37,095 nucleotides of DNA from Jimgerdemannia flammicorona (taxonomy: Eukaryota): positions 1 through 37,095 of the forward strand of contig RBNJ01000196.1 of the NCBI GenBank assembly GCA_003990765.1, given 5' to 3'. Made by a program: the position numbers and the translations under genes. Below are positions 1-37,095 of the stretch, piece by piece. A model generated the notes under the pieces. The model was not told the DNA's origin. It was given only the letters and a program-made list of their open reading frames with translations, and made no database searches. Each line of letters opens with the position of its first letter. Within the stretch, counting starts at the first letter, position 1.

Positions 1-59
1 TTTTTTTTTATAGTCTCTTGGACTCCTTCCTTTATTAATACATCTGTCTATCCAATAAA

Positions 60-3000: not shown

Positions 3001-3700
3001 ATCCCCAGTGGTCCAACTATAGGCACCACTCCACCTCCAGAGTCCTCCAAACATCCATGCCCCAGCATTTGGCTATCAGTATTCAGTCAATCCTTATATC
3101 TAGTTCATTCACTCAGTGTGTATAAATCCTCTTTTCTCCCTACTGTATTCTGCCCATATCTCCCAAAGAGCTAAGGTTCTCTACCTCCTCTCATACATCC
3201 AGGCTGCCACTTCTTCCACCAGTACTCCTCTCTCCATCAGTTCTATCTAACTGAAGATCCTGCACTATATTGAAGTCACTCTTCAGAATATCTACTCTAT
3301 TCTTCAAGAATGTGCCCTCCTCTAAGAGACCCTTAATTCATGCAATCTGCTCACCCCTAACTATAGGGCAGTAGTAAGAGCCAACTCTCACTAGTTCTCA
3401 CCTTGATCAATACCATTCCCTCTATACCAAATGGTCACCCCAGCTCCTGATCCCACTCAAATCCCCTTTACTACTCTACACCAAAACTGTCACTTTGCCC
3501 ATCCAAGTAGTAGCTCCTCCCCATTCTCTAGTCCACTCTACCTGATTCACATATTCTTGCAATACACATTCTGCACCAGAAAGAGATCAGCCTCCAATCC
3601 CTTCAGTCAAGTGAAAATATTCTTTTGCTGTCCAGAGCCCCTTAATCTATTCACATTTAGAGAAAAAATGTTAGTTGTACTGTTCTTTGGGAATAATATT
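60..3700 (-). pseudogene. LINE ORF2 (APE endonuclease + reverse transcriptase), disrupted
   Basis: Track ORFs 1667-1906 and 2095-2325 match RT motifs; endonuclease motifs at ~3000-3675; multiple stops and frameshifts. Confidence 0.85.
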
Positions 3701-5550
3701 TAGAAGTACTCCACATCCTCTACAAATCCACATTCATCTCCTCCCTTGTCATGTCCAAGTTATGTTTGATAGCCACTTCCTCCTCCACAGCCATTTTTGC
3801 CTCCAATTCAACCAGAAGTTCAGCCATCTCCCCATCCTCCTTCTCCTGAACTCCTCCTGATACTCCAGGCAGGCCTTCTGTCAGAGCTGCAATCTATGAT
3901 GCTCTACCCAACAGTGTGCAGTCTGCTCACTAGTATCACTCACTAGCTTGGCCTCTCTCTCCTTATCAATCTCATACCCCTCTTCCTCTAGGAAAATTGC
4001 AAGTACCTCTGCCTTCAGTGCCTCCATACTCTATCACTATACAGAATCTGTGTCCAATGTTTCTCACTCATCACCCTCAGGTCAACTTCTCTCAACTTCT
4101 CAGTCACAAAGTTGTTCATCATCTGGCTCATCTACAGTAGGTTTCCTACCTTCTTTTCTTCTGGAGATACTGGCCTTCTTATACTCAGCATCATGATATC
4201 TGCTCCTACACTTGCAGTTTCATCCCACTCCTCCTCCATTACATTTACCAGCTCATCCTCACCAACTGCCACCACCTGACCCCCTTTCACTATATTCAGA
4301 ACTCCAAGTATACCTACTGGGCTCTACACATCAGCATATTCTCTGCTGCCTGGCTCCTCACAGTAGGACCTCATCTGATAAGAGAGAGAGTACCATTCAA
4401 GTCCTGTTCCCAGACTTCAAATGTACCATCCACATAAGAGTCCTTATGCAGTGACTTCTCTGCCCTATTCTGATCCTTCTTGATAATCTCTCTCCCCTTA
4501 CTAGCCCAGACACTCACTTCAGCACCCCCAGACTCCTCAATATCATTTGCATTCTTCTTTGCCCTTCCTTCCAGGCTTGCTAACAACTCTTGCTATCTCT
4601 TATACTCCTGAGCTCTCTCTCACTACCTCTTGTTAGTGCGGAGATTTTTTCATTCACAATCTCCAAATGTATCAACTCTACATATATCTTTCAGGCCTTC
4701 ACCCTCCACTCAACTGCTCTACTCATCTCTTCCAGAGTCTTCAATAGATCCTCCTCCTTCTCCTTGCTCCTCTTTACCCTTGACACTTTACAGATGAATA
4801 CCCTCTACAGTATTACTGAAGACCAGTTGCTTGTCTTCCCAGTGACCTCTTTCTCAGCTAGCTGAATCCTGACATCAACATCTTCAGTCCTGAAAGTAGT
4901 TCCCTCCTACATCTGAAATCCAATATTCACTATATTACTATACTCCACCATCATCTCCTCAACCCTCCTCCTGGTCTCCACTATTGTTACTATAGGTATG
5001 CCCTTCATCAGTAGCTGAACCACTCTGGGGTCCCACCTCAAGCACCATACTATAGGGATCACCATCTCTCCTATAGCTACTCCAGTCTTCAATGCTTCCT
5101 CTAGCAGATCTGTCTCCTCAAAACCCACTTCAATCTCCTCTAATCTCTTCAGAAACTTCACTAAGGCAGCTTCTGCTATCTGCTTTGAGATAATCCCCAG
5201 AACTATCCTTACTGTCACCACCAGGCTCTAGAAGTACAAGGTTGCTGCAAACTCTGAGATTGACTTTTTGAGTAATGGTGCCACCACTAGCCCCATCACA
5301 CCATCTGCCAGATCTTCCTTCCTCTTTGGGCCCATCTGCCCAGCCCTACTATCAATAGTCACATCTGGATTTTTTTCCAGATTTCCAGTCATGCCACTAT
5401 CAGCAGTCCCTCCCCTACTTCTAGCTACTGCTCCACTAGCCCTTTCACCCACTAGCTGAGGTCCAGCATCTCTCACTTCTCCTTCTTTCTGTTTTTCCTT
5501 CTCTCTTACCTACTTGCCATAAGTACTGACAGACCATTCTCCAGTCTTCA
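3700..5550 (-). pseudogene. LINE ORF1-like region, disrupted
   Basis: Lies upstream of ORF2 on the same strand; charged, coiled-coil-like fragments (4907-5221, 4371-4586); a homologous fragment recurs at ~34430-35180. Confidence 0.55.
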
Positions 5551-5699
5551 GCATATCTGTAAAGCTCCTCCCCCTCTACTCTTCTACCCCTCCTCCAGTA
5601 TTGCTACTACTACCAGATCTACCCTACTCACTCAGACTACTAAAAGACCCCATCTCTAGTCCATACTCTCATCTGATATATTGCCAGTCAAAGGTTTTA

Positions 5700-6740
5700 G
5701 GTCCACCTGACCTAGTATGCATATTAGCTTACTTGTTAGTTACTATGACCTTAGTATCTTTCTCCAATAAACAGTTCAAAAGTATGTTTCAAAGTTTATA
5801 TTATATAAATGGTAGTAGAGAAAGATGTCAGCATATATTACTGATACTTATTCTAGGTCTCATTTTGCTTATGTTACTTGGAACTGGTATACTTAATTAC
5901 TAGTATTAATCAATATTATATAGATAATATAGTATAGTATATATATATATTAAAGGAGTATCTTTGTTATTATCTGCTTTCACTAGTAGGGCTTACAATC
6001 TTTTATTATAGAATACTTGGGAAAGATAGGTAAAGAGAAACAGTAATTATTTATTAATACTAGCTTATATACTTTTATATATATTGATGATATTTACAGA
6101 ATAATATAGTTAGGCTATGTCACCACATATTGAGTTATTATTACTAAGATATTTCAATAAGTTTAAACAAGTAGAATAATAAACTTTAAAAGATTAAATT
6201 AGTTCAAAAAATAAGATAACTATTTTGACTTAAAGCTTGAGTTAATGAACTTCTCTTAAAAGTAAAAACATAATTTTAAAACATAAAATTAAAAATTTAT
6301 TAAGAGACTTAGATATTAATAAATATTAAGATAAAACTATATTTAAAACCTACATTAGTTAAAATAAAATTCTTTTATAAATAATATATATATATACTCA
6401 TATTTAAAAATATAACTTAAAAAGTTTATAATTTCTAAAATATAATAGCTTTTTAATATATAGATATATATATATATTAATAATTTAAAAAATTGAGTTG
6501 TATTTTGAATAAAAAAATAATATTTTAGAAAATTATTTAAAAGATGTTTTTATCTACAGATAAATAGATATTAAACTATACTAGAAATTTTAAAATTCCT
6601 TTATTTTCAAGCAAGATAATGTTTAAATTATTGTATGAAAAGATTCTTTGTACAATAGATAATTGTCTTAATCCCTTAAGTTTGCTTCCTTTAAGGAAGA
6701 CAACAAATATACCAGTATATGAAAAAAAAAAAAAAATATA
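5700..6740. other. Very AT-rich spacer, probably terminally eroded repeat DNA
   Basis: Strongly A/T-biased, (TA)n runs, no credible ORF. Confidence 0.6.
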
Positions 6741-6791: not shown

Positions 6792-7809
6792 TCATGAACA
6801 CGGAGCTGTCAAATAAACATAAAGCTTTTTACATACCCATAATGTCTCGTCCGTTTCCCCCGCAAAGACCATATATTCGTCATCTCCGATGGCTTTGCCA
6901 TCACCATTAAGAAAGTGGTTGGTCTCAACGTGGCGGAGCGTGAAGGCCTGATTGGTTTGCCATTTCTATATAAGAAAGAGTCATATAAGTTTGCAGTTCA
7001 AAGTGTCATTGCAATTTGATTCCATCGTGAAAAAGTGAAAAAGATCATTTCCTGCTCTTCGGTAGTGTGTGGCCTCTCAACCTTCCAATTGTTTTTACTG
7101 TCGGAATCCCCAAAAGCAGTCACCTCCTGCCCTTCCCCGCTGAGGGAAGAGAACTCTTTGTGGGAGTGAAGCATTCCGCTGGTCCACCAGTGTTTGAGCT
7201 GGATGACGTCGTTATAACGGACGGGCTTGCCCAAGAGGTCAGAATCGGAGGTAGTCGGTAGTACGATCCATTTTAAGCGATACGTAGATGGTTTGTTGTC
7301 GGCAAAGACCTGTAAATTTGCTCGTTATTCAGTTATCATTGTTAGGTCACCTCTCGCTCGACTTTTCCAATCTACCTACTACACAATATCAATAGCTCAC
7401 CATGCTCTGCCCGCTCCCCTTACTGTACTTATACATGAAGTTCGTGGTAAGGTATCTCCAAACTTCAAGCGAAGAATATTTGAGATCAATTGTGTCTCCA
7501 TATCGTATGAAAATAGGCTCCCAAACTGCCGTAGTTGTCGACGTGATAGTGGCAGTGGTTGTCGACCCGATGGTGGCAGTGGTTGTCGACGTGATGGTGA
7601 CAGTGGTTATGATGGTGGTTGTCGATGTGCCGGGGTTTGGAATTAGGATGATATTGAATATTTTCGTCGCGAGGAATGCCAGGAGGGCCACGATAATGCT
7701 CATGATCACAAAGGATTTCTCGCTCCTCCCTAACAAAAGGAATACAAGTAAAGAATGAGCGTGTCATAGTAATTCTGTATTAAACAAAGGCGAACTCACC
7801 AGTTAGCAT
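6792..7809 (-). CDS. Spliced MIR-domain (beta-trefoil; SDF2/PMT-loop-like) protein with an N-terminal hydrophobic anchor and Thr-rich stalk
   Basis: Exons 7809-7800 (ATG CTA ACT G|gtgagt), 7729-7401, 7309-~7052 and 6965-~6792 join in frame: MLTGRSEKSFVIMSIIVALLAFLATKIFNIILIPNPGTSTTT...IRYGDTIDLKY...GSGQSMVFAD...GKPVRYNDVIQLKHWWTSGMLHSH...GQEVTAFGDSDSKNNWKVE...KWQTNQAFTLRHVETNHFL. Three MIR-type motifs are present. The intron 3 donor and the 3' end are uncertain (a further donor gtatgt at 6836 is possible). Confidence 0.75.
7530..7630 (-). repeat. Imperfect 24-nt coding tandem repeats (TSTTTATI-like) forming the Thr-rich linker
   Basis: Recurring gtggttgtcgac units on the + strand. Confidence 0.7.
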
Positions 7810-8261
7810 GTTATTCAACCAGGTGTTTTTCGCATCCCTTTTGCGCACTCCTGCAAATTTAACTAACAGTTGCTGGTTAAGTAATAAGAAAAATATATGA
7901 TACTTCGTGGATATAACGTCAACTGACAGAATATCAGAGAAGGGGCGTCCTCTGCTTCGCTGAAACAATCGACTTTACCGTAAACGACTTTCGCAAAACG
8001 CATTTTCGACAGGCGCGGTCACCGAGCACTAAAATGAAATAAGATGCAATCGCTCAAATGTTGTCAATCGAGTAGATAACAAAGTCAGATGACTGCTATG
8101 GCTACGACTCGGTCACTGCACCAAACTTTTAAGGGTCCCACGCTCCAGCACGGGTCCTGGAACACGACCGCCGATCCAAATGTTAAATGGTGGCGCAAAC
8201 ACCATAGCATACGGTGTTTTTTTGGATAGTGTTTTTTGGTGACGTATTGGATGATTTTTAA

Positions 8262-8283
8262 GTCACATGGCCGGCCATGTGAC
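8262..8283. promoter_or_regulatory. Perfect 22-bp palindrome GTCACATGGCCGGCCATGTGAC
   Basis: The palindrome is directly visible ~450 nt upstream of the MIR gene start; the regulatory role is inferred. Confidence 0.35.
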
Positions 8284-8304
8284 AATGTAGGGATCGCGTC
8301 ACGT

Positions 8305-9958
8305 AGCTGCCAACAACTTTTCTTATAGCATCAAACGGATTTACACTACACTTGTAAACAACGGTGCACTACCCTGTCCTTGGTATGGATACAGTTGTTC
8401 GTTACCACGTTAGGGTCCACCAGATTCTGCTGCATCTATCAAATTCCCAATAGTAACATATCCTGTGGGCTTCTTTTTGTTATGTACGTGCTAAACGCCA
8501 ACATAAACATACCATCATCCCTCAAATTCCAGCCTCCGCCCCAAAGGGTGTCCTCACTTATTCGACAAATGGTCACTCCAGTGTTGGCTACACTTTCCAT
8601 AATATAGCCTGCATCCGGAGTCTCAAGGAACACGCCCGAGTGTTTGAACTGAGTAAAGCCCAGAATATCCCGATAAAACACGGAGAAACCCTTCACAACC
8701 GTAGCTCTGGTAGCGGGATCTGCAGCGAAGTTAGTGCGTCAGTTTGGAAAAGTAGTTGAATCAAATGCTGATATTTTAGTAATGATATATTCATACCATT
8801 TTTGTATATGTTTATCCCCCAAATAAAAATTCGAGACACTTTGACTAGAGTCCATTGCCTACGATGAGGGGGTGAAGTTGAATAATACCCCGAATTTTAC
8901 ATCAGGATTTTGGAGCCAAATATATGTGATTGCGCGGCATCGATTGACCGGCATGTCATTTCCTCATTTGGGATAAACATTATGATGGCAGCTAGCCAAT
9001 GGAATAGTGGCAGGTGGCAGCTAGCCAATTAAGCCTTGTCTTGTTATGTATATACTCCGGACTCTGTACAACAAGTGGCGCATGCAGCCCTGTGGTGTAA
9101 CGCGAGAGAGAATCCCAGATCCTGGTAGAAGCCTGTGAAACCATATTGAGCGAGACAATAAATTTCATTTCATTCATACTATAATAAGCTCTACTTCAAC
9201 ACAGTTTTCTCCAAATTCTTTTTTTATACAACCCTTCTTTCTTTCCTTCCTTCCAACTGTGGAGACATACCCCTCAATACCTCTCATTTCTACAACAGTA
9301 CTAGCACGTTATAATGTTGCCCTCATTCGTGACTTTCGTGATCATTCACCCCTTCTGCTTCCAAATGCATGCCAAATAATACGGGTTAAACAATTCATTC
9401 ATTCACCCTGTGTCTTTTCTTCCGTCACCCTGCCTCCAAATCTCCTACTATTTCTCACCATCTCCGTTCATTGTTCTCAACCTCCATTCCAACTTCACCT
9501 AGTCAACCAGAGCTAGTTCATCGACGGTGCTGAACGTCAGAGTCCCTGTCTGGAATCTCGCCGATCCCAGTGTCGAGGTTACGTGAGAAGCCACATAATT
9601 TTACGCAAGCTTCCATTGTAATCCGTCGGTACCTAACGTATGACGTGATAGTCCCAATGGGTACGTTTAATTTATTCTCATTGCAGTATCGGGTGTTCGA
9701 GGCACTTATGGTTCGTTATTTCATTTCATGATTCCTTGACCTTCGCTCTTATTTTTTATTCATTCATCCCTCCCCACCCATAGTGAAATGCTCTAAGCAG
9801 ATAACCTAGATCACCCATCTTGGTTCGCCATACTTTGGTGGCAAGCTGTGGGATTGGGTAGGTTGAAAAATTCGGATTTGTGAATGAAGGTGGGGCTAGG
9901 AATCTGAATGGGCCGAGAGAGGTGGTGCGAATGGAAAAAATTAGTTGTGTAAAAGATG
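8305..9958. repeat. Segmental duplication, copy A (direct repeat of ~11670-13310)
   Basis: Colinear similarity from agctgccaacaacttttcttatagcatcaaac to ttagttgtgtaaaagatg / tcagttgtgttgaagatg, with many small indels. Confidence 0.9.
8346..8855 (-). pseudogene. Disrupted paralog of the PPPDE/LRAT-like gene
   Basis: Starts MDSSQS (Gly2 lost). Exon 1 reaches the intron out of phase. A net 4-nt deletion gives an early TGA at 8439, and a 2-nt deletion hits the GPYNVVTNNC motif (CCCTAACG vs CCCTACAACG). Confidence 0.8.
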
Positions 9959-11669
9959 ACACCCTTAAAGCTGGCAGCCGATGCTAGTTAACGATTCCAA
10001 AATAACTTGTACTTCGGACCATTCCATGAGTAATAAAATATATCAAATGCACATCGTTCCGTAAAGTATCTGTATCCAGTATTAGATATATATCTAAGTG
10101 TGTTCCATATCCATATCATTTTATTCACAGCCAAATCTAGGATCGCTTGTTTGTAGCATTCATAGCTAATCCAATATGCACGTTAATGGAGGCAATGTTC
10201 AGCAGTCAAGCATAATGGAAATCTTGGAAGAGTACCGAGCAGTAAAAAATCTTACAACAAAGATTGAAGTTCTACCGATATATGAAATAGCCACTGCCAT
10301 ATTTATTTGTGAAAGGAAGATCATGATAATATACATTTTCTCACTTCGACCTTGGACCCCCTCGCCTCTTTACTCATCATTCATGATGGGTATTACTTTC
10401 CTTTGGAATAAACACCTCATGGGACTTGTGTGCAAAATTATCAATTAATTCCATTACAATTTTATTTTTCGAAAACGTGGAAAAGACATTTATTGAGAGC
10501 GCGCTACAATGTACCACTCGTATATAATATAATTTATGTGAAATTTCTTTACCACGTCGAATTTACACTCATCCTCCTGGCAGAGGTAGATGTCGTGCCA
10601 ATGAACAGAATCGTCTTCGTCCTGTCAGCAATGATGGTGGCTGGATTCTCTTCGCTGCCAACTTAATAGCTCCATTCCCCGAGTTGGTAAATGGTTGTAG
10701 CACACAATCTCCTTGGTCTCGGACAATACAAACGCTGGGAACTCTGAGTCATGATTTTTTTGACATTACACGCGGCAAAAATGGCATTCACGGAGGAAAC
10801 AATGCTGCGATTCAAGCTACCTGAAGTTCCTCTTTGGGTGAATTCACTGATATGGGTGTGGTTGCGTGCCATAATGTCTGTTCATTCGTACAAACAAGAA
10901 TATATATGTATTAATAAGACGAGATCCATGAAAAAGAAATTAGTATTTTTCATGGCAACCATCTCAAATATCGCCAATGTCAATAGGGCTCCAATTACAG
11001 ATTTTTTTAGGCTCGTTGGTCCTATAAAACCGATGTTACGAAAAAACAATGATGTTTAGAAGAAGAAGAAAAACATTAATGCTACTTACAGGTTTGTCAG
11101 AGTGGGAGGACGTTCCGCATAATTGATGGAAAACTATGCGAGTGCATGACAAATAACGATATATGGGCGCGATAGTCATCAACAATTAGCAATACTTGAA
11201 AGGCGTTCGTAGCCTTCCCACCTGGTCATGACGTGCAACCTACCCAGCGCTCTTTTGGCTGACGCTAGCTAAGCCATTTCATATGTCCTTCGCAGTGATC
11301 AATATAATCCCAGTGTTTGCTGGTCAGATAAAGTTATAGTGAACACTTACAATGACACGTCAGGGAAGGCCCCCCTGAATCTCCCGTAGCCTGCGGGTGG
11401 CTTGTTCGAGAATCGCAGCAAAGTTGTCATGGTCAGGAATTCAACCCAGCAGAGTACGAGGTTCCCGGGAATCGAAATTGGCAAAAGTGTGGGGGAGGGG
11501 TGGTCGCCATGAATCATGCAACATGGTGTAATGTCGTCTGTGCAGTCCTTTCCCAAAATAAAACAGAATGAGCAAAAAAATGTTCTGGCATTAGTAAAGC
11601 GGTCATGTCATGGAAAGCAAGGAGACGAGGACATTAACTTGTAATACTGCAATAACTCCCTACAAAACC

Positions 11670-13310
11670 AGCTGCCAACAACTTTTCTTATAGCATCAAA
11701 CCAATTTATTACATCGCGAGCGGATTTACATCACAATTGTAAACAACGGTGCACTACTCTGTCCTTGGTATGAAGACAGTTGTTCGTTACCACGTTGTAG
11801 GGTCCACCAGATTCTGCTGCATCTATCAAATCCCCAATGGTAACGTATCCCGTGGGCTTCTTTTTGTTATATATTGTACTAAACGACGTCGGATTAAGTA
11901 TACCACCATTCTTTAAATTCCAGCCTCCGCCCCAAAGGTTGTCCTCACTTATTCGACAAATGCTCACTCCAGGGTTGGCTACGCTTTCGATAATATAGTC
12001 TGCATCCGGAGTCTCAAGGAACACGCCCGAGTGTTGGAACTGAGTAAGGCCCCAAATGTCCCGATAATACACGGAGAAACTCGTCACAACCGTAGCTCTC
12101 GTAGCGGGATCTGCAGCGAAGTTAGAGCGTCAGTTTGGAATAGTAGTTGAACCGAATGCTGATATTTTAGTAATGACATATTCATACCATTTTTGTCTAT
12201 GCTTATCCCCCCAAATAAAATATTTGAGCTACACTCAGAGACACTTTGACTAGAGCCCATTGTCTACGATGAGGAGGTGAAGGTGAATAATATCCCGATT
12301 TTTACATCAGGATTTTGGAGCCAAATATATGTGATTGTGCGGCATACCGGCCGGGTTGCTGAAGTATCCGTATGTCATTTTCTCATTCGATGGCAGCTGG
12401 CCAGCAACAGCTAGTCAGGTGGCAGCTAGCCAATTAAACCTTGTCTTGTTATGGACATACTCCGAACTCTGGACAATAAGTGGCACATGCCGCCCCTGTG
12501 GTGTAACGCGAGAGAGAATCTCAGATCCTGGTAGAGATTCTACGACCATGAAATTGAAGCCTGTGTAAACCATATTGAGCGAGGCAATAAATTTCAATAA
12601 GCTCTACTGCAACACAGTATTCTCCAAATTCTTTTTTTATACAATCCTTCTTTCGTTCCTCCCTTCCAACTGTGGAGACACATCCCTCAATACCCCTCAA
12701 TACCCCTCATTTCTACAACAGTACTAATGTTGCCCGCATTCGTGACCTTCGTGATCATTCACCCCTTCTGCTTCCGAACGCATGCTAAACAATACAGCTT
12801 AAACTTCATTCACTCACCCCGTGTCATTTCTCCCGTCACCCTGCCTCCAAGTCTCCTACTATTGCTCACCATCTACGTTCATTGTTTTATTGTTTCAAAA
12901 CCTCCATTCCAACGTTACCTCGGTCAACCGGAGCCAGTTCATCGACGGTGCCGAACCTCAGAGTATCTCTAATCTCGCCGACCCCAGTGTCGAGGTTACG
13001 TGACACGTCGTCGCTGTCGCCAATATTAATTAACTCTAAGCTTCCATTGCCCTGGGATGCAATCCATCAGTGCTCAACGTATGACATGAAATGGGTACGT
13101 TATTGCAGTGTTCGAGGCACTTACGGTTCGATATTCTATTCCATGCTTCCTTAATCACCGCTTTTTTCTTTTTTGCACTCATTCACCAACGGAGAAACCC
13201 TCTGGGCAGATAACCTATATCAACTGCTTTTGTGCACCACAATTTGATGGCCAGCGATTACTGAAGGTGGTGGGAGACAAGAATTGGAAACATCAGTTGT
13301 GTTGAAGATG
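11670..13310. repeat. Segmental duplication, copy B
   Basis: Aligns by eye with 8305-9958. Confidence 0.9.
11731..12260 (-). CDS. 150-aa permuted papain-like (PPPDE/DeSI- or LRAT-like NlpC/P60) protein with an N-myristoylation motif
   Basis: Exon 1 12260-12188, 77-nt intron (gtatga...ctaac...gcag), exon 2 12110-11731, giving MGSSQSVSECSSNILFGGISIDKNDPATRATVVTSFSVYYRDIWGLTQFQHSGVFL...GPYNVVTNNCLHTKDRVVHRCLQL. HSGV precedes YNxxxNNCxH, the His-then-Cys order of permuted papain folds. Confidence 0.75.
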
Positions 13311-13475
13311 GGTACAACGATTGTGACCTTCGGTTGGCTTCGATGTCCTCCGCTGGACACTTGTCTTGCATTACCAAGATCTCACACCTGTACGGCCCAG
13401 GATCCCAGGGGTGATGCTTGCGGACATCGAAGCAGGAGGTGAGTATGCATTACCTCTTTGTTGGGGACCTCTACA

Positions 13476-13533
13476 CCGGTCTTGGCTACTCTAGGAGCCA
13501 ACTGACGAGCCCCTTGAGTAAGGGCGAAACCGG
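13476..13533 (+). ncRNA. Type III hammerhead ribozyme
   Basis: Stem III CCGGU(13476-80)/ACCGG(13529-33); cleavage triplet GUC (13479-81); stem I UUGGCU(13482-87)/AGCCAA(13496-501); core CUGACGA (13502-08); stem II GCCC..(13509-12)/GGGC(13522-25); GAAA (13526-29). Loop 1 UACUC is complementary to loop 2 GAGUA. Confidence 0.9.
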
Positions 13534-13577
13534 GGGCGGGGATACCTTTTAACGTACTCAATATTCTTTTCGGGGGG

Positions 13578-13600
13578 TTTTTTTTTTTTTTTTTTTTTTT
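13578..13600 (+). repeat. T23 homopolymer preceded by G6
   Basis: cggggggttttt...tttt, ~45 nt downstream of the ribozyme. Confidence 0.9.
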
Positions 13601-13849
13601 GGAGCGGGTGTTTGACAAAATAAAATAAATAAAAAACACTGATCATCTTTTTTAACTTCCTCTCCATTTCTCTTTCAACTTCGGCCCCTTCCCGTCTCGC
13701 GGCGAGCACTAGTCCATGCGAGACTCTTCTCGGAACTGTATGTATATGTGCAAGATGAGGATTGTGTGGGTAGGGCCGAAGTAGACGGTGGTGAATGACG
13801 GTGAGATGGGGAGGAAGGGGAGAGGTTTGGACGCCAGGGCGCAACGCGT

Positions 13850-15190
13850 AAGCAAGCAGATTGGCTTGGATGGAGTGGCACGAAATCAGGAATCGCAAAG
13901 TGCACATATTGTTTGTACCCAATGACCCAACAACCAGCTCCTGCTCATCTTCCAAATGGCATGATCCTTTTTAACATCAAATAGAAACTCAAAATCTGCT
14001 TCTTCAAGTCCTCTCCTTTTCGAGCAGTTCACATATGACTGTCCTCTTCAGGTCGGCCTCCTCATCTTCTGGGACATTGCCCTCATACCCAAATCGCCGT
14101 CAAATCCCAGTTGCCATCGCAGTCATTCGGTGTCATGGTACTCACCACTGGTAGCGCACTACGGCGATTATGAGACAGGTCCGTTGTGGAACTGCGGGAT
14201 CCTCCATGACTGACAGTGCAAAATGGGGGAGGATGTGCCGAGGGAGACACGGGTGGAGGTGTGAATTGAAGGTTTGCATGATAATGGGGAGATGGCAGTC
14301 AAATTGAAGAGCGGGTGCGTCCTCCGGTATTCCGTTATAAAGTGGGGCTGTGCCGAGAAAGTGAATGTGGAGATGGTGGAGGTGGCAGACTATGACAGGC
14401 GGGGCGGCCGAGGCGCGCGATACGATTTCGAAGGACATGATGGATATGGCAGATTAGGATGGCGATTTGGAGGAAATGAGAAGCGGTTAGGGAGGGATGA
14501 AAGTGACAGTTTGATTAATTTCTCCCCGTATCCTCTCGTTGATATCTGAGAGCATCACTCACCTTCGCTAACGACAACCTCTGCACTATCATCGAGCCCA
14601 ACGTCTGAATAACCATCAGTTCAATGGCGAAGTCCAGACTACCGTTCATCAGGATCGTCCATCAAGGTCGTCCATGGCGAGGTAAGACGTGCTTTCCGAA
14701 TCGGACGCATCTTGTATAAAAACATGACATTGAGGACTATCCTAATATGCTAGAAAAATTCTTGAATAGGATTCAACGCTAATACAAAACCGTTACAATT
14801 TTACGTCCTTCCCCTCTAACTCACCACTTCCAACTGCCATTATCCAATGACCTAGCAACTGGCCTATTCAGACGATTGATAGTACTCTCTCAAGCTGTTC
14901 TAACATCACCATGGGCAGCATTATCTCGGGCTCATTCGATGACAACACAGGAAGCTCCATCTTATGCACATTAGACAACAACACAGGCAGCTCCATCTCG
15001 AGGTTGTTTGAGTGTAGATCATGTTACAATTCCACTCGCAGTTTTATCAGATCTGCTGATTACACCACGTTTACCAAAACAGTGCCACTGCCACGAGAGC
15101 CAGATAGCTGACGAAGGAACCAAGTGCCAGGGCTGCAATACCACCGGAATAATTATTTCCCGAGACAGTATCACTTGTAGCCTGATTTAA
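13850..15190 (-). pseudogene. Possible decayed spliced gene of unknown family
   Basis: Protein-like fragments (FGYEGNVPEDEEADLKRTVICELLEKER; GLEEADFEFLFDVKKDHAIWK; MDDPDER..DVGLDDSAEVVVSE) next to GTGAGT donors at ~14825, ~14561 and ~14145, interrupted by stops. Confidence 0.25.
14897..15002 (-). repeat. Three imperfect 36-nt tandem repeats (EMELPVLLSNVH / KMELPVLSSNEP / EIMLPMVMLEQL)
   Basis: Units gagatggagctgcctgtgttg / aagatggagcttcctgtgttg / gagataatgctgcccatggtg on the minus strand. Confidence 0.65.
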
Positions 15191-15259
15191 GAGTAAGGTA
15201 GAATTGGTGAAACTGGTGAAACTGGTAAATGGTGGAGTGAATCCGGTCTTTTGTTACCA

Positions 15260-15820: not shown

Positions 15821-15952
15821 TGTGACGTATGCAATTGAAAACGGAGTACCGGTGACTGCTAAGATCAGATGACATAATGGCATGACAATCTAATAGACAG
15901 CCTGACCTATTAGGTGACTATCCCAAAAGAAGGCAAGATAATCCAAGCCAAA

Positions 15953-17014
15953 ATGAAGACCACATTATTTAAGGAACCATACTCTACCTCAGGGATCAGC
16001 ACCAAAGAACCAAGTACCCACTACACAATGCCTCCCATTCGCTGATCCAACCAGACCTCCCGCCGCTCTACCCCTTTGCCTGGCCCAAAGACCCTGATCT
16101 TTGAAGCTATCAAGAAGGCCATCTGGTGCCCAGATACTTCCGAACACTTGAACTTCTATACTGAGGACCTTGGACACTTCATCAACTACCGGTATATAAT
16201 GACCCAACAGCTCAAAGACACTACCAAATGAATGACCCTCTGGCATGACTATGAAATCAGACACCGCCTTCGCAATGAGACTCAAGAAGGTGACCAGGAA
16301 GACCTCATTGCCGAAATGTTAACCACCAGCCGGCTAATCAAGAGAGCCCTCCATGTCCATCAAATCTTCCACCATATTCCCTGGGCTATAGCACACTTAC
16401 AAGGAGTAACAGCTGGCAGCCTCTCCTGCCTTTCAACTGAAGATACTGACTGGATAGAATCTGAAGTAGCGAATGCTATTGGCAGCAACTGCATTGCCAT
16501 AGGAAGCCAACAAACCGAACCTACTCAGCCAGGTTTCCACACTACCCCACTCCGAGACAACCATCAAGGTCACCTAATGAGTCTTATGGAGATATTTGAA
16601 GGACCACCCATTACCATAGAAGCACCCATTGGAGCTACCCCAACCACCCACCACCTTGACAGCCACAATTCACACCTCATCATTTGGGAACCGAATCAAG
16701 AAGAAGCCCAAGAAGTTCCTGTCTTTAAAGAGGAGGCCCAAGAACTCCAAGACCCTGCCCCTGAAGAAACCCCCTCTGATACTGAAACTGACGAGTCTTC
16801 AGAAGAAGAAGAGGAGCAACAGAGAGTCTACCAGTCCTCTGTCTGCATTTAAGCTGTTCAAGGGTTGGAGAATGTTGTTGAAGATGACTGGCCACTTTTC
16901 TACCCCCTCACCTCTTGGCTGGCGCTTCCCCCCTTTGAGGAGAGATATGATGAAGAAGAAATCACAACCCAGCAAGATTTGCCCGCCACGGATGAAGGGT
17001 ACTATTTCCTCTAG
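15953..17014 (+). pseudogene. LTR (U3)-encoded ORF of unknown function, 5' copy (353 aa from ATG 15953, 328 aa from ATG 16028)
   Basis: One frame. Stops at 16043, 16229 (TGA) and 16850 (TAA) are CGA/CGA/CAA in the 3' LTR copy. Confidence 0.75.
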
Positions 17015-17039
17015 AGTACCACCCATCAGCCATGAGAAC

Positions 17040-17255
17040 CCAGCTTTTGTCAGCAAGTCCATTTCTAGTGTTGCTACCCAGTACCACCATTTTCAGCATT
17101 TTGTCAGCAGATCCAAATTCAGCATTGCCCCCCTCTACAACTGTTTCTGGCAACAATCATCATATCATGTCAGCTCATCCGAATTCAGCATTGCTATCTA
17201 GTGCCACCATTTTCAGCATTTTGTCAACAAGTCCGAATTCAGCATTGCTATCTCC
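17040..17255 (+). repeat. Imperfect ~52-68 nt tandem repeats in LTR U3 (cagcattttgtcagcaagtccgaattcagcattgc)
   Basis: Four related units; the same array is at ~27303-27518. Confidence 0.75.
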
Positions 17256-17380
17256 TACAACCCAATCCATAGTAAACAATAGCCTGCATCTCGCATTGTG
17301 CAAACCAATAGCATAAGTTCGCCACAACATAGTATACCTTAGCCTTAGTCACGCCCCCTCCCCCATAGCTAGCAAACTTG

Positions 17381-17412
17381 TATAAATAACCCATATTCTT
17401 AGAGTGAATAAA
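17381..17412 (+). promoter_or_regulatory. LTR TATA box (TATAAATA 17381-88) and AATAAA (17407-12)
   Basis: Both motifs are conserved in the two LTRs (3' copy 27644-27675), downstream of the U3 repeats. Confidence 0.55.
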
Positions 17413-18210
17413 CCTCAGCCAGTTTGTGTTTAAAAGTAAAAAGAAATTACTGAGAAACCTCACTGCCTCCAAGAGACCAGATAAATTCTGAGAACAAGAT
17501 AACAACCTAGAGCAACAGATCACTCAGAAGTTTGAGTTAAAGAATTTTCTCTTGCCATGGAAAGAAAACATTACCCGACCGCTGCCATTCGGACCGCCAC
17601 TCGACTGCTGCCATTCGGACTGCCACTTGACCACCATTCGAGACCCAAGTGACCCAGCCAAGGATTCAAGAACCGCCGCCATTCGAGTCCACCATTCGCC
17701 GCCATTTGAGATTCAAGACCCCGAAAAGCCAAGGAACTCAAGGATACCAGTACAAGACCCACCAGCTAGCAAGAACAACCGCCAGGAACCCTTTCAAGTT
17801 AACAAGTCAAGATGGACGAGCGAGCCATCAACCTCCGCTTCTCCGATTCCTGACCTACTGCACCACGAACTGCTTAAATTCAAGTCCGCTGTCATCGCCA
17901 AGTTAATCGACTGCATATTCTGCTAAGTTTATCGCCGTCAGCACACCCAAGTAATCACTCTCTGTTAGCAACAACACCTTTTTCCACTGAATATTGAGCC
18001 ATTGAACAATCGAGCATTCTTGATTTCAACCACAATCGTTGAATAACCGAACGACCTATTATCAATTACCACACAAATCGAACGACCCATCACGTGACCA
18101 TCAACCCGTAACCACCGCGAACACACTCAGTTATACATCGTGCACTTTGCCAAGTGGCACACATTGAGCCATGTAGTCGAAGTTCATTATACATAACCAA
18201 CACCACATTT

Positions 18211-18227
18211 TGGGGGCTCAACTGGGA
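18211..18227 (+). promoter_or_regulatory. Primer-binding site, tRNA-Pro type
   Basis: TGGGGGCTCAACTGGGA starts 3 nt after the LTR and resembles the classical Pro PBS TGGGGGCTCGTCCGGGA. Confidence 0.8.
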
Positions 18228-21200
18228 AAGTTTTCAAAAGACTTGACCATTTGGCTCAAGAACCCAGCTATCTACAGTGGAGAACTTAGCAGGACCAAGT
18301 CAGCAACCAAACCAGGGGCAGCAGCAGTCCTCCTCAGCAGAAAAGAAAGCCCACACCCTTGTCAGAACAGTAGCCAGGACCCTATTCAACAACAGTAGCC
18401 AGAAAACTGAATCAGAAGAAAGAAGTGACCCAGATTATGGTTTGACTTCAAGAGAAAGGAGACGACTCAGAGGACAACCAGAACTGCCCCTTCAAATCCA
18501 AGACTTAGGCCAAGAAGAAGAAGAGGATATCCCCGAGGAGTATCAGACCCTTATCTATAGGAAGAACTTAGACAGAAGCGACTACATAACTACTGTTGTC
18601 ACTCGAGTCACTCTACTAGACCGGGTATACTTTGAAACATCAGAAGGAGAAGAGGACTACCATCCATATCAACTAGAGCAAGACGACGATTGGGGATCAG
18701 ACCATCAAAGAGACGAATTCAACCTATACTATTACCTAAACAGTGACACTGACCCACAACAAGGTGAACAAGACCTCACTACTTCACAACAGCAAGGGGC
18801 AGACGAACTCACTATCAGTTATATCAGTCCACTCCCACCATCAGTTGCTCGAACTTCAGTACCCTGGTCACTCACACCTCGCCACTATCATCAGTCTATC
18901 AGAAGATCTCTACCACTACCCAGGACTTCAACCCCAGCATTAATTAGAAGAGTCAGATTACCCTCACCCTCACCAAGACACTGCCCTCTGCCAGCACCAC
19001 TAGATCATCAAGTACTAGCACCACTACCTTCCCCATCACCCTGAGGATCTGCCAGATCCCATACCCCTGAACAATACTCAGATAGTGAAGACGAGCCAGA
19101 CATGAGCTACCTTCAGAAGTTCCATGGTGCAGACAATGAAGACATCGAGGAATTCTTTGGAGAAATTGAAGTTCAAGCAGCTGCCAAACAATGGGATGCT
19201 GTAAGAAAACTCAGAATTGTGGAGTCACTCCTGAGAGGACTGGCCCTACAGAGGTATAATGAAGCCAAGTAAGCCGGAGGAGGAATCCATACAGAGGAAC
19301 TGAATGATGGCCTTCAATCTGATAGAAACCATGTAGCAAGATACATGATTCACAAAGCCTGGCTCCATGCCCAGTTCAATAGATTCGAGTGCCAATAAGA
19401 AGCACAGGAGACTTTGACCTATATGAGCCAAGCTGCCAATGAAACTCCTAAGAGTTTCTACCATCAGATTCCATCTCAAATAATCAAGGCGAATCTTCAA
19501 CCAGCAGTCCAACTGGCCCTAGCCTCAACTACCTTTCTCAATGGCTTATACCCAGAACTCCGAAGGCAAGTTATCAGGATGGGATATCGAAACATTGAAC
19601 AGCAAGTTGCTGGAGCACAAGGATGTTGGGAAGCAGATTATAGACCAGTATAACAAGTACAAGGCTATCCTGAGCCAATCCAAGCCGAAACCTCAAGGAC
19701 CCGAGGAACAACCATGGAGCAAGAGAATGCCTTCCTCAGAGCCCAGATAGCCAACTATGAGAACAGACCAGCACCCACAAATCCGACTCCATTCAGGCAA
19801 CCACAGCAGCAGCCACCATCAAGAGTTCAAGAAGACCCCATGATAATGCTCACCAAGCAAATGAAGGACCTGGCCATTGCGGTTGCCCAGCTGAACAACC
19901 AAGGTAGAAGACAACAAGACTACCATTGTGATAACAGACCAGACTACCGGCAACAAGACAACAGAGGTTCCGCCCCCACACTACCAGCTGCAACTACAGC
20001 CTCATCAGCGACTGGTTCCTATGGTCCCACCTACTTCAGCTGTGGAAATCAAGGCCACATCCAGAAGAATTGTCCAAGGAACCAATCCACCCAGTCCAAT
20101 GACAGAAATGTCAACCTCTTTCAGGTAGATGAAGAGACTCAGGAGATGGAAGAAGAAGCAGCCTGGCTCCATGGTCAAGAAGATGACATCTACCTGTACT
20201 TCGAGGCTTTTCCATCCAAGGTAACATGGGAAGCTGCCCCAGCAGAGACCAGAGGATGAGGAAGACCACGAAGGAATCCCCCACCTCAACTGCCAGTAAC
20301 AATATCCACAGGCAAGCATCCGCGACATGGCCATTCTTCTTCAGACACTCCACAAGAACAGGAGAAGCGAGTGAGAAGAGATACCCCTGAACCAGAAGCT
20401 GGACCATCTAGGACAACCCCCAGCTCTACCCTGCCAGATCTTGAAGAAGACGAGCATATGAGCATAGAATCTTCAGCTGACGAAATGCCCATCAGGAATG
20501 AGAGACTACCCCCCAAGGGACCAAGACACCGAAGAAGTAGCAAGCCCCATGCAGCAGCCTCACTTTGGGAACATATCTGTCTACAGAATGCTGGTCTTAC
20601 AGTTGAGCAAGTCCTCAAGAACGCACCAGAGGTCAGGCGAAAATTCCTGAAGGAAGCCAAGGAAGATACCAAGAGACTTCCAGTCCAAGGACCACACACT
20701 CAAGAACCTAGCACTATTCACACAGTCCATGAGAGCCAGCGACATGAACATCAATCTACAAGACTCGCCGATGGAAAAGTGCATGGTGAAAATGCCAGAA
20801 TTCTTGTTGATACTGGAGCAGCAGTATGCATCATCACCCAAAGAATGTTGGAGTGAATTGGATGGGGAATAGATAAAGGAACCAAAGCAAGAGTTATCAT
20901 GGCTGACGGATCAGCTTCCACACCCCTTGGACTTGTCAGTGACATTCCCATTCAAGTTGGAAAGGCCCGCCTCAATGTACCCAAAGCTGTCGTGACCCCC
21001 ACAACCTCCTATGACCTGATCCTGGGAACTGACTGGTTAAGCCAAGTTGGAGCCAATGTAGATATCAAGAAACAACTCCTGGTCTTCTCCATTCATGGAC
21101 AGAAGCACAAGATACCCATTGACTCGAAAGGATCATCTAAAAGGACAAATCAAGCCTCAGAAACAGAATGGTAAGGACACGGCGACACCCCCACTACTAC

Positions 21201-22233
21201 TGAGGATGAAAGCGAGGCCAATTTCCTACAAGAACTAGGAAGTGATTTCGATGCCCCAAGGGACCAAGAAAGCGAACAAGAAGACTCTTTCATTGGAGTT
21301 ATTGGTGTTGAAGGCCTAGAAGAAAGCATTGATAGAGCCATTAATGCAAGGGCAGTACTTGAGTTTGCAGGACCTTCTGCTCAACCACCACCACCACTGG
21401 TAGAAAATCGGATCATGCAAGCCTTTTGTCGAGGCACATGTGAACACTTCATCAGCTTCCACTCACTAAGAGATGATTGCAGCAATTGCCAAATCCTGGA
21501 TCTCAAGAAGGTTCCAATGCCAGAAATTGACAACAAGGACGAATTGAAGCAAGCACCATTCCACAGCCGAATACAACCTCCAACCCCGAAGACCTTCAAG
21601 AAGACCTATAAGGAAGGACAGAAGATCCTTGCCCGCCAAACATTCGAGTCCCTTACCATCGAAGGAGAAAGCAACAGCTCTTACACTATCACCTGGGCCC
21701 TCCAGATCACACAGCCCACCTATGACAAGTATCGGAAGAGATTTCCTACCAGTAGGGAGGTCAAACAGCGAAATGAAGACTTTGTTAAGAAGGGACATTG
21801 TGATTGTGGAAAAACCTTTACCTGCTACTGGTGTGAACATCAAGATGTTCACCTCAGCGAAGATGTCTACAAGAGCCGAGTCAAGAGAAAGGATCCCACC
21901 CTGCAAGAACCTCAAATTTGCTGGGCCTGTCGGAAGTGCAAAGAAATCAACTATGAAGGAGACTGCAATTTCAAGAGCAAGACCTCTATCTGAGACCTAC
22001 TATTGGAAGTTCTTGCCATCATTCACTGGTACTGCTGCCCTCATCAAGGAAAAGAAGGTGTCAATCTTACCTTCATCCTTTTGGAAGCTCTGGACCCTCT
22101 AGGAAAGACTGGATTCAATTACACAAGAAACTCAAAGACAGGAGCTCACTGGCCTTTCTTCAAACCAGAGTACATGGACTTCTCACCTACAATGGCAACA
22201 GCTGAAGTACCATTTCTCAAAGCTCAACCAATT

Positions 22234-22640
22234 ATCCAGGTCAAGCTGCTTTCACCCTGGGCATAGCCACCTCTTGCACAAATAGAAGAATCAGTTGGTT
22301 ATGACCTCTGCCTCCCCTACCAAGCAAGAATCCGACCCAGAAGTACCAGGACTTTTGACCTACAGATCACACTCGCTATACCACCTGGGCATTATAGACA
22401 GTTGGTCTCAAGATCCTCATTGGCAACCAAAGGAGTCACAGTAGAAGGAGGAGTCATCGATCAGAACTACTGAGGTCCCTTGAAGGTCATCATCCGCAAT
22501 TCTAATAGAACCAGCTGATTCTTCAGTCCTATGGAAGCCATCTGCCAAATTCTGTTTATCAAGACATCACAGCTGACCATCCAAGAGGTAGACCAACTAG
22601 AAGATACCAACAGAGGACAAGGAGGCTTTGGAAGCACCAA
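22234..22640 (+). pseudogene. dUTPase domain within ORF1
   Basis: GYDL, IPPGHY, SRSSLATKG, GGVIDQNY(R)G, AICQ, RGQGGFGST: the trimeric dUTPase motifs in order. Confidence 0.9.
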
Positions 22641-23006
22641 TAGAAATCTATGGACACCACCTATTGAGGTTCATTTGGCAACAGTTGCTCAATTCCGACA
22701 AATGAGACCCCATATCTGCCGCCCAATCCGAGCAAGAGAAGACATCCTCCTGCAGCCCTACCAGCAAAAAGGCCTAGATGTGCACCTACCAGTAGAAGCA
22801 AACAACTTGATATTTGCACCATCACTGGAGCTTCAAAAGGAATACCACATCCTCCTGGCTGAAGAACGAATTCATGACCAGATGTCACCGATCCACATCC
22901 CTATCAGAAACTCGGGCTTCAAAGTAATAACTATCCCCAAGGGAACAACATTGGGATATTTTGAACCACTGATAGACACCTACAAGGAAGAAGTCTTCGA
23001 ATTCTT

Positions 23007-23061
23007 GGGAAACGGCAAGCCCTCTCCGGTGAGACTGACGGTACCAGGGAGGAAGACTCAG
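23007..23061 (+). promoter_or_regulatory. Programmed -1 ribosomal frameshift signal (G GGA AAC + stem/pseudoknot)
   Basis: The heptamer is in the correct phase of ORF1 and a -1 slip enters the RT frame. A 7-nt spacer is followed by stem 23021-30/23043-52. Confidence 0.75.
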
Positions 23062-24482
23062 CAAATTCAGCAATCAAAGCTATCGACATCGAGACAACTC
23101 TAACCAAAGACCAGCAACAACAAATACAGGAGTTGATAGAGGAGTACAAAGATATATTTACCACCACATACGATAACTTCCCACCATATCAATACAGAGA
23201 ACACCCTATACATACTGGAGATGCAAGACCAATCTGACAATAACCCTACTGAACACCACATCATCTGATTGAATTCGAACAACAACACATAGACGAAATG
23301 CTATGAAATGGAGTCATCAGACCATCATCAAGCCCCTGGGCCTCACCAGCAATTATAGTACCAAAGAAAGGAGGATGGAGATTAGTTGTGGATTTCAGAA
23401 AACTCAACAAAGTCACCACAGAAGATGCTTACCCACTGCCAAAAATTGATGACCTCATCAATGCCCTTGGAAAAGCCAAATACATGACCACTACCGACCA
23501 GTTCCAAGGATTCCAAGTAATACCTATTGCCAAAGAAGATATCTGCAAGACGGCCTTCATCACCAGACGAGGACAGTATGAATACCTATGAATGCCCTTT
23601 GGATTCTGCAATGCACCCACCTCATTCCAATGAATGATGAACCATGTCTACTGGGACCTCATTGGAAAAAATGTACTAGTGTACATAGATGATGTCATCA
23701 TCTACTCTGAGATATTCAAGCAGCATTTGCAAGACCTTCATGAAGTATTCAATACCATTCGAAATTCAGGACTCAGACTCAATGCCAAGAAGTGCTTCTT
23801 TGGAAAACATCAAGTCGAATATCTGGGATATGTTGTCTCAGCTCAAGGAACACATGCTGACCCCTGCAAGGTGGAGAAAGTCAAGAACTACCCAACCCCG
23901 ACCTCAGCAAAGGAGACCCTATCCTTCCTTATGCTGGCATCCTACTATCGGCGATTCATCCCAAGGTTTTCAGATAAGGCAGCACCTCTCTGAGATATCT
24001 CCAAGAAGGACCAACCATTCTACTGGAAAAAGGAACAACAAAAGTCATTCGACCTACTCAAGAAGGCCCTTACCGAAGCCCCTGTCCTGGTGTGACCAGA
24101 CTTTGGCAAACCATTCATCCTGGCAACTGATGCCTCAGCCTTAGGACTTGGATCAATTCTGTCTCAGCAAGATGACCAGAAGAGGGAGCATGTTATCAAA
24201 TATGCTAGCAAGGCCACAAATGAAATACAAGCAAACTATGGAGCCACTAAGTTGGAATGCCTGGCAGTAGTTTGGGTTATGGACCACTTCCGACACTATC
24301 TCTTGGGAAAGAGATTTGCCCTCATCACTGACCATCAAGCTCTACAATAGTTGTTCAATAAGCCGGAGCCCTCAGGAATCTTCGCTAGATGGATCATATC
24401 TCTGCAAGAATATCAGTTCACTATTGTCTACAAGAAAGGTGCTAAGAATTCCAATGTTGATACCCTGTCAAGAATCCCATGA
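23007..24482 (+). pseudogene. pol: Reverse transcriptase + RNase H
   Basis: SSSPWASP, DFRKLNKVT, YPLPKIDD, MPFG, YIDD (23682-93), LATDAS (~24126), NYGATKLECLAV, TDHQAL, DTLSR. Confidence 0.95.
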
Positions 24483-24537
24483 AACCAACAAGAAGGGAAG
24501 GAGCCCCCACAAGAAAGGCTGCTTCCCACTCACCCAA

Positions 24538-25758
24538 ATGAACCAAGAATTGCGCCTCGCCCTCACCTGGAGTCTGCACCATAGAAGCTTCAAGAAAGGA
24601 ATCCAACCAGCCCATAAGTTGTTTATCCAAAGGAATTTCAAGAAATTCCAAGAAGGTGATGGTGAACTTTGGAGAGTAGAAGGAGAGCAGTACACCCGAG
24701 TTCCAAGAGAAGAAGAAATATTGAAGATCCTGACAACAAATCATAACCAAAATGCACACCGAGGAATTGGTGCCACAATTGCAAGAATCAAGAAGCGATA
24801 CTGGTGGCCCAAGATGAGAAAACAAATTTCAACGCACATTCAACAATGTGATACCTGTCAAAGATACCAACAAAAGCCTACTGACAGAGCACCATTAATA
24901 CCAATTGCAGCACCAGCTGGAGCCTTTCAAAGACTAGGAATAGACATTATTAGACCTCTACCAGTAACCAGCCAAAGAAGATACTATATTCTCACTATCG
25001 AAGACCACCTGACAAAATGGCCTGAAGTCTTTGCCATCGAGACTGCTGATGCCCAGACAATTATTGGGATCCTGTATGATGAAATTTTCAGCCGCCATGG
25101 TGTGCCCAAGGAAATCATTACCGAATAAGGCCAAGAATTCGTCAACCAAGCCATGAAGACCTTTGCAAGCAACTTCAAGATCAAGCTATGACCAACAACA
25201 GCCTACCACCCACAGGCAAATGGACTCACTGAACGAATGAACCAGACCATCAAGCGAGGTCTCAGTAGAACCAGAGATCAACTAAACTGGGATATCTATC
25301 TACCGGCAATTCTGTTCAGCATCCATACCTCTAAGACAACTGCTACCCAACAGACCCCCTTCTATTTGGTGTATGGCCAAGAAGCACAAGATCCTACTGA
25401 ACCAGTCCAGCTAGATCTGTCAAAACGAGTCACAGAAGAGATCACCCGGTTACATGACATACGCCAGCAAGCACGAGGATTTATTGCCAAGGCACAAGAA
25501 CAACAAAAGAGGTACTATGACGGCAAAGCCGACCTCGAACCCCTGCTCATTGGACAAAAGGTTCTGGTGTACCATACCATCATAGAAGGAAATTGGAGTG
25601 CCAAGCTTGAACCGAAATGGGAAGGCCCCTATCTCATACACCAAGTATTCTCAAACCACACTTATCAACTCAAGACCTTGGATGGAGTTATACTCAAGAC
25701 CAAGATATATCACAACCACATAAGACTCTACTACTCAAGAGAAGCAAAATGCATTTGA
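24538..25758 (+). pseudogene. Integrase (HHCC zinc finger, core, GPY/F), in a different frame from RT/RH; may extend to 26022
   Basis: HRGIGAT, YWWPKM, CDTCQ, LGIDI, GVPKEIIT, TAYHPQANGLTERMN, WEGPY. No chromodomain seen. Confidence 0.92.
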
Positions 25759-26073
25759 ACAATCCTGTTCACTCTGTCTGTGTTGTCTCCACTGGAGATA
25801 CGATGGACGTTTTACTTGAAACTCAAGAAAGCCAACAACGTTGAAACCAGACTCAAGCCCATCCATGTGACAGACATTGTTACTAAGAAATTGCCTCAGA
25901 TTACAAGTAATACTATTTCCGATGGGTTCAAACCCCCAGCCGCAACTATGGGAGCCCTTGCCCTAGACAAGGATGGCCAGTCCTCACAAATGTGTCAGCA
26001 TTCTGCTCGTCCCTGGAGTTAAGACCACCCAACTCTGTGTAACCCTCACCGCCGAGGACGGCTCTAATTTTGC

Positions 26074-26083
26074 AAGGGGCAGA
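26074..26083 (+). promoter_or_regulatory. Polypurine tract
   Basis: AAGGGGCAGA immediately before the 3' LTR. Confidence 0.75.
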
Positions 26084-35180: not shown

Positions 35181-35347
35181 CAGGTGCTGAAGTGTATGAG
35201 GTTTTTCCAGAGTTTAGACAATCTTTGATCAGTCTGGTTAGAGGGGAGTCAGGCAGCTATTCTGGTGAATAGATACAGAGGAGAGTCCTTCTCTCTGGGC
35301 AGAGAAGTGCCATAGGGGGACCCACTGTCACTGATTCTTATGCCCTC

Positions 35348-35682: not shown

Positions 35683-35689
35683 TCAGATA

Positions 35690-37030: not shown

Positions 37031-37095
37031 AAATAACTATATCTAAAATTTTATAAAAATATAAAGAAATCATAAAAAATTATTTTACTAAAAAA

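Follow-up and report, generated by a model that had tools for sequence, protein, structure and literature searches.

Genomic setting of the ribozyme unit

The stretch of DNA analysed here (the window) comprises 37,095 nt of Jimgerdemannia flammicorona contig RBNJ01000196.1 and is transposon-rich fungal DNA. A non-coding unit of 290 nt (13311-13600) carries a complete hammerhead ribozyme motif. The features of the window are the following:

1670-1984, minus strand: reverse-transcriptase remnant (Pfam)
8305 to about 9957: first copy of a direct repeat, non-coding
11670 to about 13313, plus strand: second copy of the direct repeat, non-coding, its end abutting the ribozyme unit
13326-13441, plus strand: stem domain upstream of the ribozyme, with a 6-bp outer helix, nested helices and small hairpins
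13474-13535, plus strand: type III hammerhead motif (RF00008, 44.2 bits, model positions 1-54 of 54)
13536-13571, plus strand: tail of 36 nt between ribozyme and G-run, with no recognised feature
13572-13577 and 13578-13600, no strand assigned: G6 followed by T23 (TRF, homopolymer census)
15821-28444: Ty3/Gypsy element with LTRs at 15821-18207 and 26086-28444, 2.39 kb each and 92.6% identical
about 29-34 kb: second, decayed dUTPase-Gypsy element, AT-rich

Remnants of integrase, protease, zinc-knuckle and dUTPase lie between the 2.39-kb LTRs of the Gypsy element at 15821-28444. These LTRs are unusually long and have tandem repeats of 120 nt inside them (17045-17261 and 27308-27524), and a T-run and a G-run come directly after the 5' LTR, which ends at 18207, at the position expected for the primer-binding site. 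The only reverse-transcriptase remnant outside the Gypsy elements is the one at 1670-1984, on the opposite strand and 11 kb from the ribozyme unit. With two Gypsy elements, this remnant and the repeat pair at 8305-13313, the surroundings of the ribozyme are a transposon graveyard.

Base composition divides the window. The CpG observed/expected ratio stays between 0.74 and 1.04 throughout 7001-15200, an interval that includes the repeat pair and can be called CpG-intact. In the blocks 1-6000 and 34001-37095 the ratio is 0.00, and the GC skew is about -0.48 in the former and reaches up to +0.5 in the latter. These CpG-free, skewed blocks point to one-strand, CpG-directed hypermutation of repeated DNA. 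Apart from two weak, sub-threshold hits, there was no Pfam match in 7001-15200, and no conserved gene was recognised flanking the unit. Downstream of it, at 14625-14690, there is an ATG-initiated open stretch with a GTAAGA-type, donor-like end, in a region with no Pfam match; it may be exon 1 of a small gene.

The two direct repeats upstream of the unit are 84% identical over 1298 columns (blastn), and about 1.7 kb of non-coding DNA separates them. The pair is LTR-like in layout and may have TG...CA ends; we found no matching target-site duplication and no Pfam match in any frame. The initial annotation had the homology between the duplicated segments stopping where the unit begins, and our end alignments agree, placing the last homologous position at about 13313, beyond which alignment is at chance level: local alignment of the sequences following each copy scores 9, below the shuffle mean of 10.5, and 96% of shuffles do as well. 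An apparent collinear MAFFT match, which would have placed a decayed version of the unit behind the first repeat copy, was rejected (transition-tolerant Smith-Waterman score of 38 against a shuffle mean of 52), and so was a resemblance between the 3' tail of the unit and the opposite strand of the repeat at 12207-12232 (score of 14 against 12.9, 31% of shuffles as good). A perfect palindrome of 22 nt is located at 8262-8283, just 5' of the first repeat copy.

The hammerhead motif and the rest of the unit

RF00008 was the sole ribozyme match in the window when Rfam matches were reported by E-value. It covers the model at full length on the plus strand (E of 1.7e-8 in 501 nt and of 1.3e-6 across the whole window, both strands; cmscan), in accord with the hammerhead in non-coding DNA reported by the initial annotation, and our own scaling gives an expected E of about 1e-3 for this score in a 40-Mb genome. 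The 44.2 bits are below the Rfam gathering score of 48.5, so a default Rfam scan reports nothing at this position. Conserved multi-copy hammerheads from the environmental loci described below likewise fall short of the gathering score (38.5 bits for L022 and 45.8 bits for L014), and the sub-threshold score of the window motif is therefore not in itself a warning.

The hammerhead core is fully intact (CUGACGA, GAAA and the GUC cleavage triplet) and all 15 pairs are standard. Helix I (UUGGCU/AGCCAA) has 6 bp and an 8-nt loop, helix II (GCCC/GGGC) has 4 bp and a 9-nt loop, and helix III (CCGGU/ACCGG) has 5 bp and is open; cleavage is predicted after C13481, that is, between 13481 and 13482. The ACUC of loop 1 is complementary to the GAGU of loop 2 over 4 Watson-Crick nucleotides, a coincidence that by our own estimate would arise about one time in ten by chance. 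Pairing of this kind between the loops is described as stabilising many natural hammerheads (PMC3088659). In the nearest-neighbour model the hammerhead fold has an energy of -19.4 kcal/mol versus -23.2 kcal/mol for a competing minimum-energy fold, which is rod-like and built on the loop 1-loop 2 pairing; the two are 3.8 kcal/mol apart. Against shuffles, the fold of the 62-nt hammerhead has a z of -1.58. An RNAalifold consensus of the window motif and 25 environmental hammerheads (26 sequences) recovered the three-way junction, which the window motif fits, with compensatory changes in 7 of 14 junction pairs, all at places where the search pattern was free. From its sequence, 13474-13535 looks like a real, complete and genuine type III hammerhead motif in non-coding DNA.

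The remainder of the unit was largely as first described. The unit is richer in GC (0.54 for 13311-13573) than the repeat (0.45). Upstream of the ribozyme, the 12-bp helix (13337-48/13422-33) is perfect and the nested 8-bp helix (13368-75/13410-17) is present with one G.U; both are evident in the sequence and were recovered in the fold. The 121 nt of 13325-13445 fold with -45.3 kcal/mol (z of -1.85, matched by 11 of 200 shuffles), and by this modelling the stem domain has real pairing potential, yet not beyond chance. The whole unit behaves similarly, with -93.3 kcal/mol versus -87.0 +/- 5.2 for shuffles (z of -1.21), and 18 of 200 shuffles were as good. Since the unit folds no better than shuffled sequence, its description as highly structured has to be abandoned.

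The G6-T23 tract is where it had been reported, at 13572-13600, and no other homopolymer in the window matches T23 in length, A15 ranking second. We assign no role to the stem domain or the T-tract; T23 may be a Pol III terminator, the tail of a retroposon on the minus strand or simply low-complexity DNA, and any link of the G6-T23 tract to the ribozyme unit is conjectural. The view that the unit has no credible ORF also stood. The ATG-initiated ORFs that overlap it measure 44 and 35 aa on the plus strand and 37 aa on the minus strand, and the only long frame is a minus-strand one of 138 aa from its ATG and 159 aa between stops; it has no Pfam match and crosses the A-run as a run of lysines. 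By our own arithmetic, chance alone would place about 0.6 such frames in a window this large. A scan for bacterial-type promoters and terminators gave results at shuffle level and was uninformative.

Copies of the unit and hammerhead repeats in metagenomes

We found no second copy of the unit within the 37-kb window and no tandem array of it (TRF, repeat and hammerhead searches). Rfam searches at E up to 1 detected no partner hammerhead in the window. Neither did an unfiltered search with a covariance model of 26 hammerheads, whose best match in the window after the motif itself reached 8.6 bits (E of 1.5), in line with the single ribozyme noted at the outset. On the minus strand, no ribozyme of any Rfam family was found at E up to 10.

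We saw no convincing target-site duplication or TG...CA ends at the unit, and no PBS or PPT was identified. There is a candidate AACG repeat at 13316-19 and 13551-54, of a 4-nt kind of which we estimate that about two are expected by chance in the positions inspected. No target-site duplication left by a minus-strand retroposon ending in the A-run was found either: the adjoining 15-mer has a single further match, which carries 3 mismatches and falls within the repeat, and one such match is what chance predicts. The unit and the 5' LTR of the adjacent Gypsy element open with the same 8-mer, and each is followed by a T-run and a G-run; no CA end is present, about 2.3 shared 8-mers of this sort are expected by chance in the window, and similar short matches are at chance level. 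The initial annotation was right in its caution on target-site duplication and on the retrozyme model, there being one ribozyme and no clear duplication.

A hammerhead-pattern scan of JGI metagenome contigs provided 62 environmental loci, none of which has any likeness to the window outside 13465-13552. The 8 IMG/VR loci that match the pattern all carry loops of phage type, with no likeness to the flanks of the unit; scanning IMG/VR with a 24-base pattern from the stem domain returned nothing. Homology of the unit to the environmental hammerhead repeats was considered and rejected, as BLAST and two nhmmer profiles matched only 13496-13531.

Two families stand out among the metagenome loci. Family 2 has 14 members (L013, L022, L023, L025, L029, L030, L031, L033, L034, L039, L046, L056, L058 and L062), and its non-coding unit measures about 448 nt. 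Each unit carries one type III hammerhead, which occupies profile positions 372-423 (about 1496-1557 where a locus retains full flanks), and conservation ends some 20 nt past the hammerhead. Three of the 14 loci are cut by contig ends; 10 of the other 11 have a common, sharp 5' start, one of them with an internal deletion, and the remaining one diverges about 70 nt inside. PF17667 (fungal protein kinase) and PF20153 are encoded in the flanks, which marks the contigs as fungal, and family 2 has the appearance of a hitherto undescribed interspersed element of fungi that bears a hammerhead. Family 1 comprises 23 loci in all (L001, L005, L007-L009, L011, L012, L017, L018, L020, L021, L028, L035, L037, L042, L044, L047, L049, L052-L054, L060 and L061) with a unit of about 470 nt that has a type III hammerhead in the middle, and ankyrin repeats are the only matches in its flanks. 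Five further loci (L004, L006, L026, L048 and L016) have the helix II and loop common to family 1. On another contig, of 16 kb (L051, 142-1657), four type III hammerheads lie on the same strand within 1.5 kb (at 142, 452, 1037 and a weak one at 1558), an arrangement that could be phage-like or tandem.

Short non-coding interspersed repeats with one type III hammerhead each therefore occur in fungi, and their existence makes a ribozyme-bearing element plausible for the unit in the window. Families 1 and 2 resemble it in having one type III hammerhead per non-coding unit and an identical junction architecture, but they show no homology to it outside the ribozyme core, have other loop sequences and are demonstrably multi-copy. 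The environmental families are analogues, not homologues, of the window unit.

Origin of the unit and comparison with known ribozyme-bearing elements

In sum, the features first described at this locus are real and their interpretation as a mobile element is unproven, so that the original proposal is partly supported. Weighing the above, we lean tentatively towards the unit being a lone remnant of a non-autonomous retroelement that bore a hammerhead and was akin to retrozymes, a reading that we find plausible but short of probable. Retrozymes use two ribozymes to excise a unit-length RNA, which is circularised, recopied to DNA by the reverse transcriptase of autonomous elements and inserted by their integrase; their RNAs are described as stable rods. 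Hammerhead cleavage yields 2',3'-cyclic phosphate and 5'-OH ends. A plus-strand transcript of the unit, if made, would cut itself once, between 13481 and 13482, leaving an upstream end with a 2',3'-cyclic phosphate and a 5'-OH RNA that begins with helix I. With only one ribozyme, this copy would be unable to make a circle by itself. The CpG-intact, non-coding stretch of about 260 nt that holds the motif is wedged between an LTR-like repeat end and G6T23 among dead Gypsy elements; on this reading it would be a stranded unit that may be compared to a solo LTR or to a monomer of an element of the retrozyme kind. Several observations speak against such a relic: the single copy and the missing partner in 37 kb, the lack of homology outside the core to the 70 loci fetched, the failure to find a convincing target-site duplication or TG...CA ends, the score under the gathering value, the fold that competes by 3.8 kcal/mol and the folding at shuffle level, in contrast to the rods of retrozyme RNAs.

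A more specific version, in which the unit is an LTR of about 245 bp (13322 to about 13567) of a fungal LTR retrozyme with the type III hammerhead inside, seems to us quite improbable. To our knowledge, LTR retrozymes have so far been described only in plants. The 5' end of such an LTR would copy the first 8 bases of the dUTPase-Gypsy LTR, with the T-run and G-run following both, and if this were true the unit would parasitise that Gypsy family and spread via circular RNA. Some of the single-ribozyme "viroid-like" circles in soil metatranscriptomes could then have been transcribed from fungal genomes. PMC11721086 notes that retrozymes may hide unrecognised among metatranscriptome circles whose ribozyme is in a single polarity, and on that premise a fungal hammerhead retroelement would bear on the origin of soil viroid-like RNAs. 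A single locus cannot carry such a claim, and the multi-copy fungal families are better material for it.

The hammerhead could also lie outside any mobile unit, as a stand-alone, cis-acting ribozyme that processes a host or transposon transcript, either trimming read-through RNA from the upstream repeat or fixing where a downstream RNA starts. Cleavage of a type III motif falls close to the 5' end of the motif, so the ribozyme remains part of the downstream product, like the ribozymes that process the 5' ends of retroelements. Consistent with a stand-alone role, the motif has no second copy in the window and its surroundings are CpG-intact, unlike the CpG-free repeated elements of 1-6000 and 34001-37095, and transcribed, self-cleaving solitary type III hammerheads have been described in Arabidopsis (PMC7761336). 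No conserved gene was recognised on either side (Pfam, 7001-15200), and we consider this reading unlikely. We also think it improbable that the motif is a fortuitous or decayed hammerhead-like sequence, inactive and functionless. Its score of 44.2 under a gathering score of 48.5 would be compatible with this, and scaling the E of 1.3e-6 to about 250,000 windows gives, by our own arithmetic, about 0.3 chance matches; the rival fold is the more stable by 3.8 kcal/mol, and no homologue displaying conservation was found among the fetched metagenome and IMG/VR loci. However, the invariant core positions and the three helices are all intact, the loops have the 4-nt Watson-Crick complementarity of a contact type that stabilises many natural hammerheads (PMC3088659), and 44.2 bits is within the range of the conserved multi-copy families (38.5 and 45.8).

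Hammerhead-bearing viroid-like RNAs and ambiviruses replicate in fungi (PMC13343976, PMC11722881), and the initial annotation had listed an integrated viroid-like RNA among its candidates. Such RNAs are marked by ribozymes in both polarities or by a compact rod or branched fold, and ambiviruses by an RdRp ORF. A viroid-like or ambivirus-like circular RNA integrated as DNA is nevertheless highly improbable at this locus, where there is no minus-strand ribozyme at E up to 10, no compact or unusual fold (z of -1.2), no RdRp-like ORF or other ORF with a Pfam match, no copy of more than unit length in the window and no match in IMG/VR. We attach a very low probability, too, to the unit being part of the terminal repeat of a Penelope-like element, in which hammerhead-bearing terminal repeats flank an RT gene with or without GIY-YIG. 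Hammerheads are present in fungal Penelope-like elements (PMC4209133, 2014) and are akin to the window motif as fungal self-cleaving motifs expected to act as monomers, those of Penelope being retroelement-associated. Those described there are of type I with a large helix III, whereas the window motif is of type III with an open helix III of 5 bp, and no reverse transcriptase was found within 11 kb on the strand of the ribozyme, the non-Gypsy remnant lying 11 kb away on the other strand. SINEs have a tRNA-, 5S- or 7SL-like head with an internal promoter, and an A-rich tail. The ribozyme-SINE first suggested did not hold up: the unit has no tRNA-like head (no tRNA by ARAGORN and only chance-level Rfam small-RNA matches at E up to 10), and the tract on the ribozyme strand is of T and not a SINE-like A-tail. 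As a whole, membership of the unit in retrozymes, SINEs, Penelope-like elements or viroid-like RNAs in each case fails or is putative at best.

Having set these alternatives beside the retrozyme-like relic that we tentatively favour, we compare the unit with the hammerhead systems already described. Type III hammerheads in genomes are described as a feature typical of plants and of the circular RNAs that parasitise them (PMC7761336), and reviews assign type I hammerheads to animals (PMC7761336, PMC6155905); the main text of these two reviews does not mention fungi. Among the titles and abstracts listed by our literature searches, none reports a fungal retrozyme, an absence that is not proof, and the fungal hammerheads found there are those of Yarrowia repeats (PMC3088659) and the type I motifs of Penelope-like elements (PMC4209133). 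The locus is a genomic hammerhead in a repeat-rich eukaryotic region, and its moderate interest comes mainly from the fungal host and the type III topology. The non-LTR retrozymes and satellites of metazoans, with type I motifs in tandem repeats of 150-400 nt, differ from the window motif, which is of type III and in no array. The hammerheads tied to interspersed repeats of Yarrowia lipolytica (PMC3088659, 2011) resemble ours in lying in fungal nuclear DNA, but no repeat family is demonstrated for the unit.

In the plant LTR retrozymes, type III hammerheads are located in the LTRs, which are about 300-400 bp long, and isolated type III hammerheads in plants are mostly solo LTRs, some of them at most 2 kb from LTR retrotransposons (PMC4918200). 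LTR retrozymes also have PBS and PPT boxes that mimic those of their Ty3/Gypsy partners, TG...CA ends and a 4-bp target-site duplication. The two hammerhead direct repeats 600-1000 nt apart that mark an LTR retrozyme were not found in the 37 kb, and the unit differs further in being fungal, in having a single hammerhead and no second LTR in the window, in yielding no clear 4-bp duplication, and in a fold that is not unusually stable. The likeness is to the solo LTRs of the plant elements as described in PMC4918200: in both cases, an isolated type III hammerhead sits in GC-richer non-coding DNA near Ty3/Gypsy elements.
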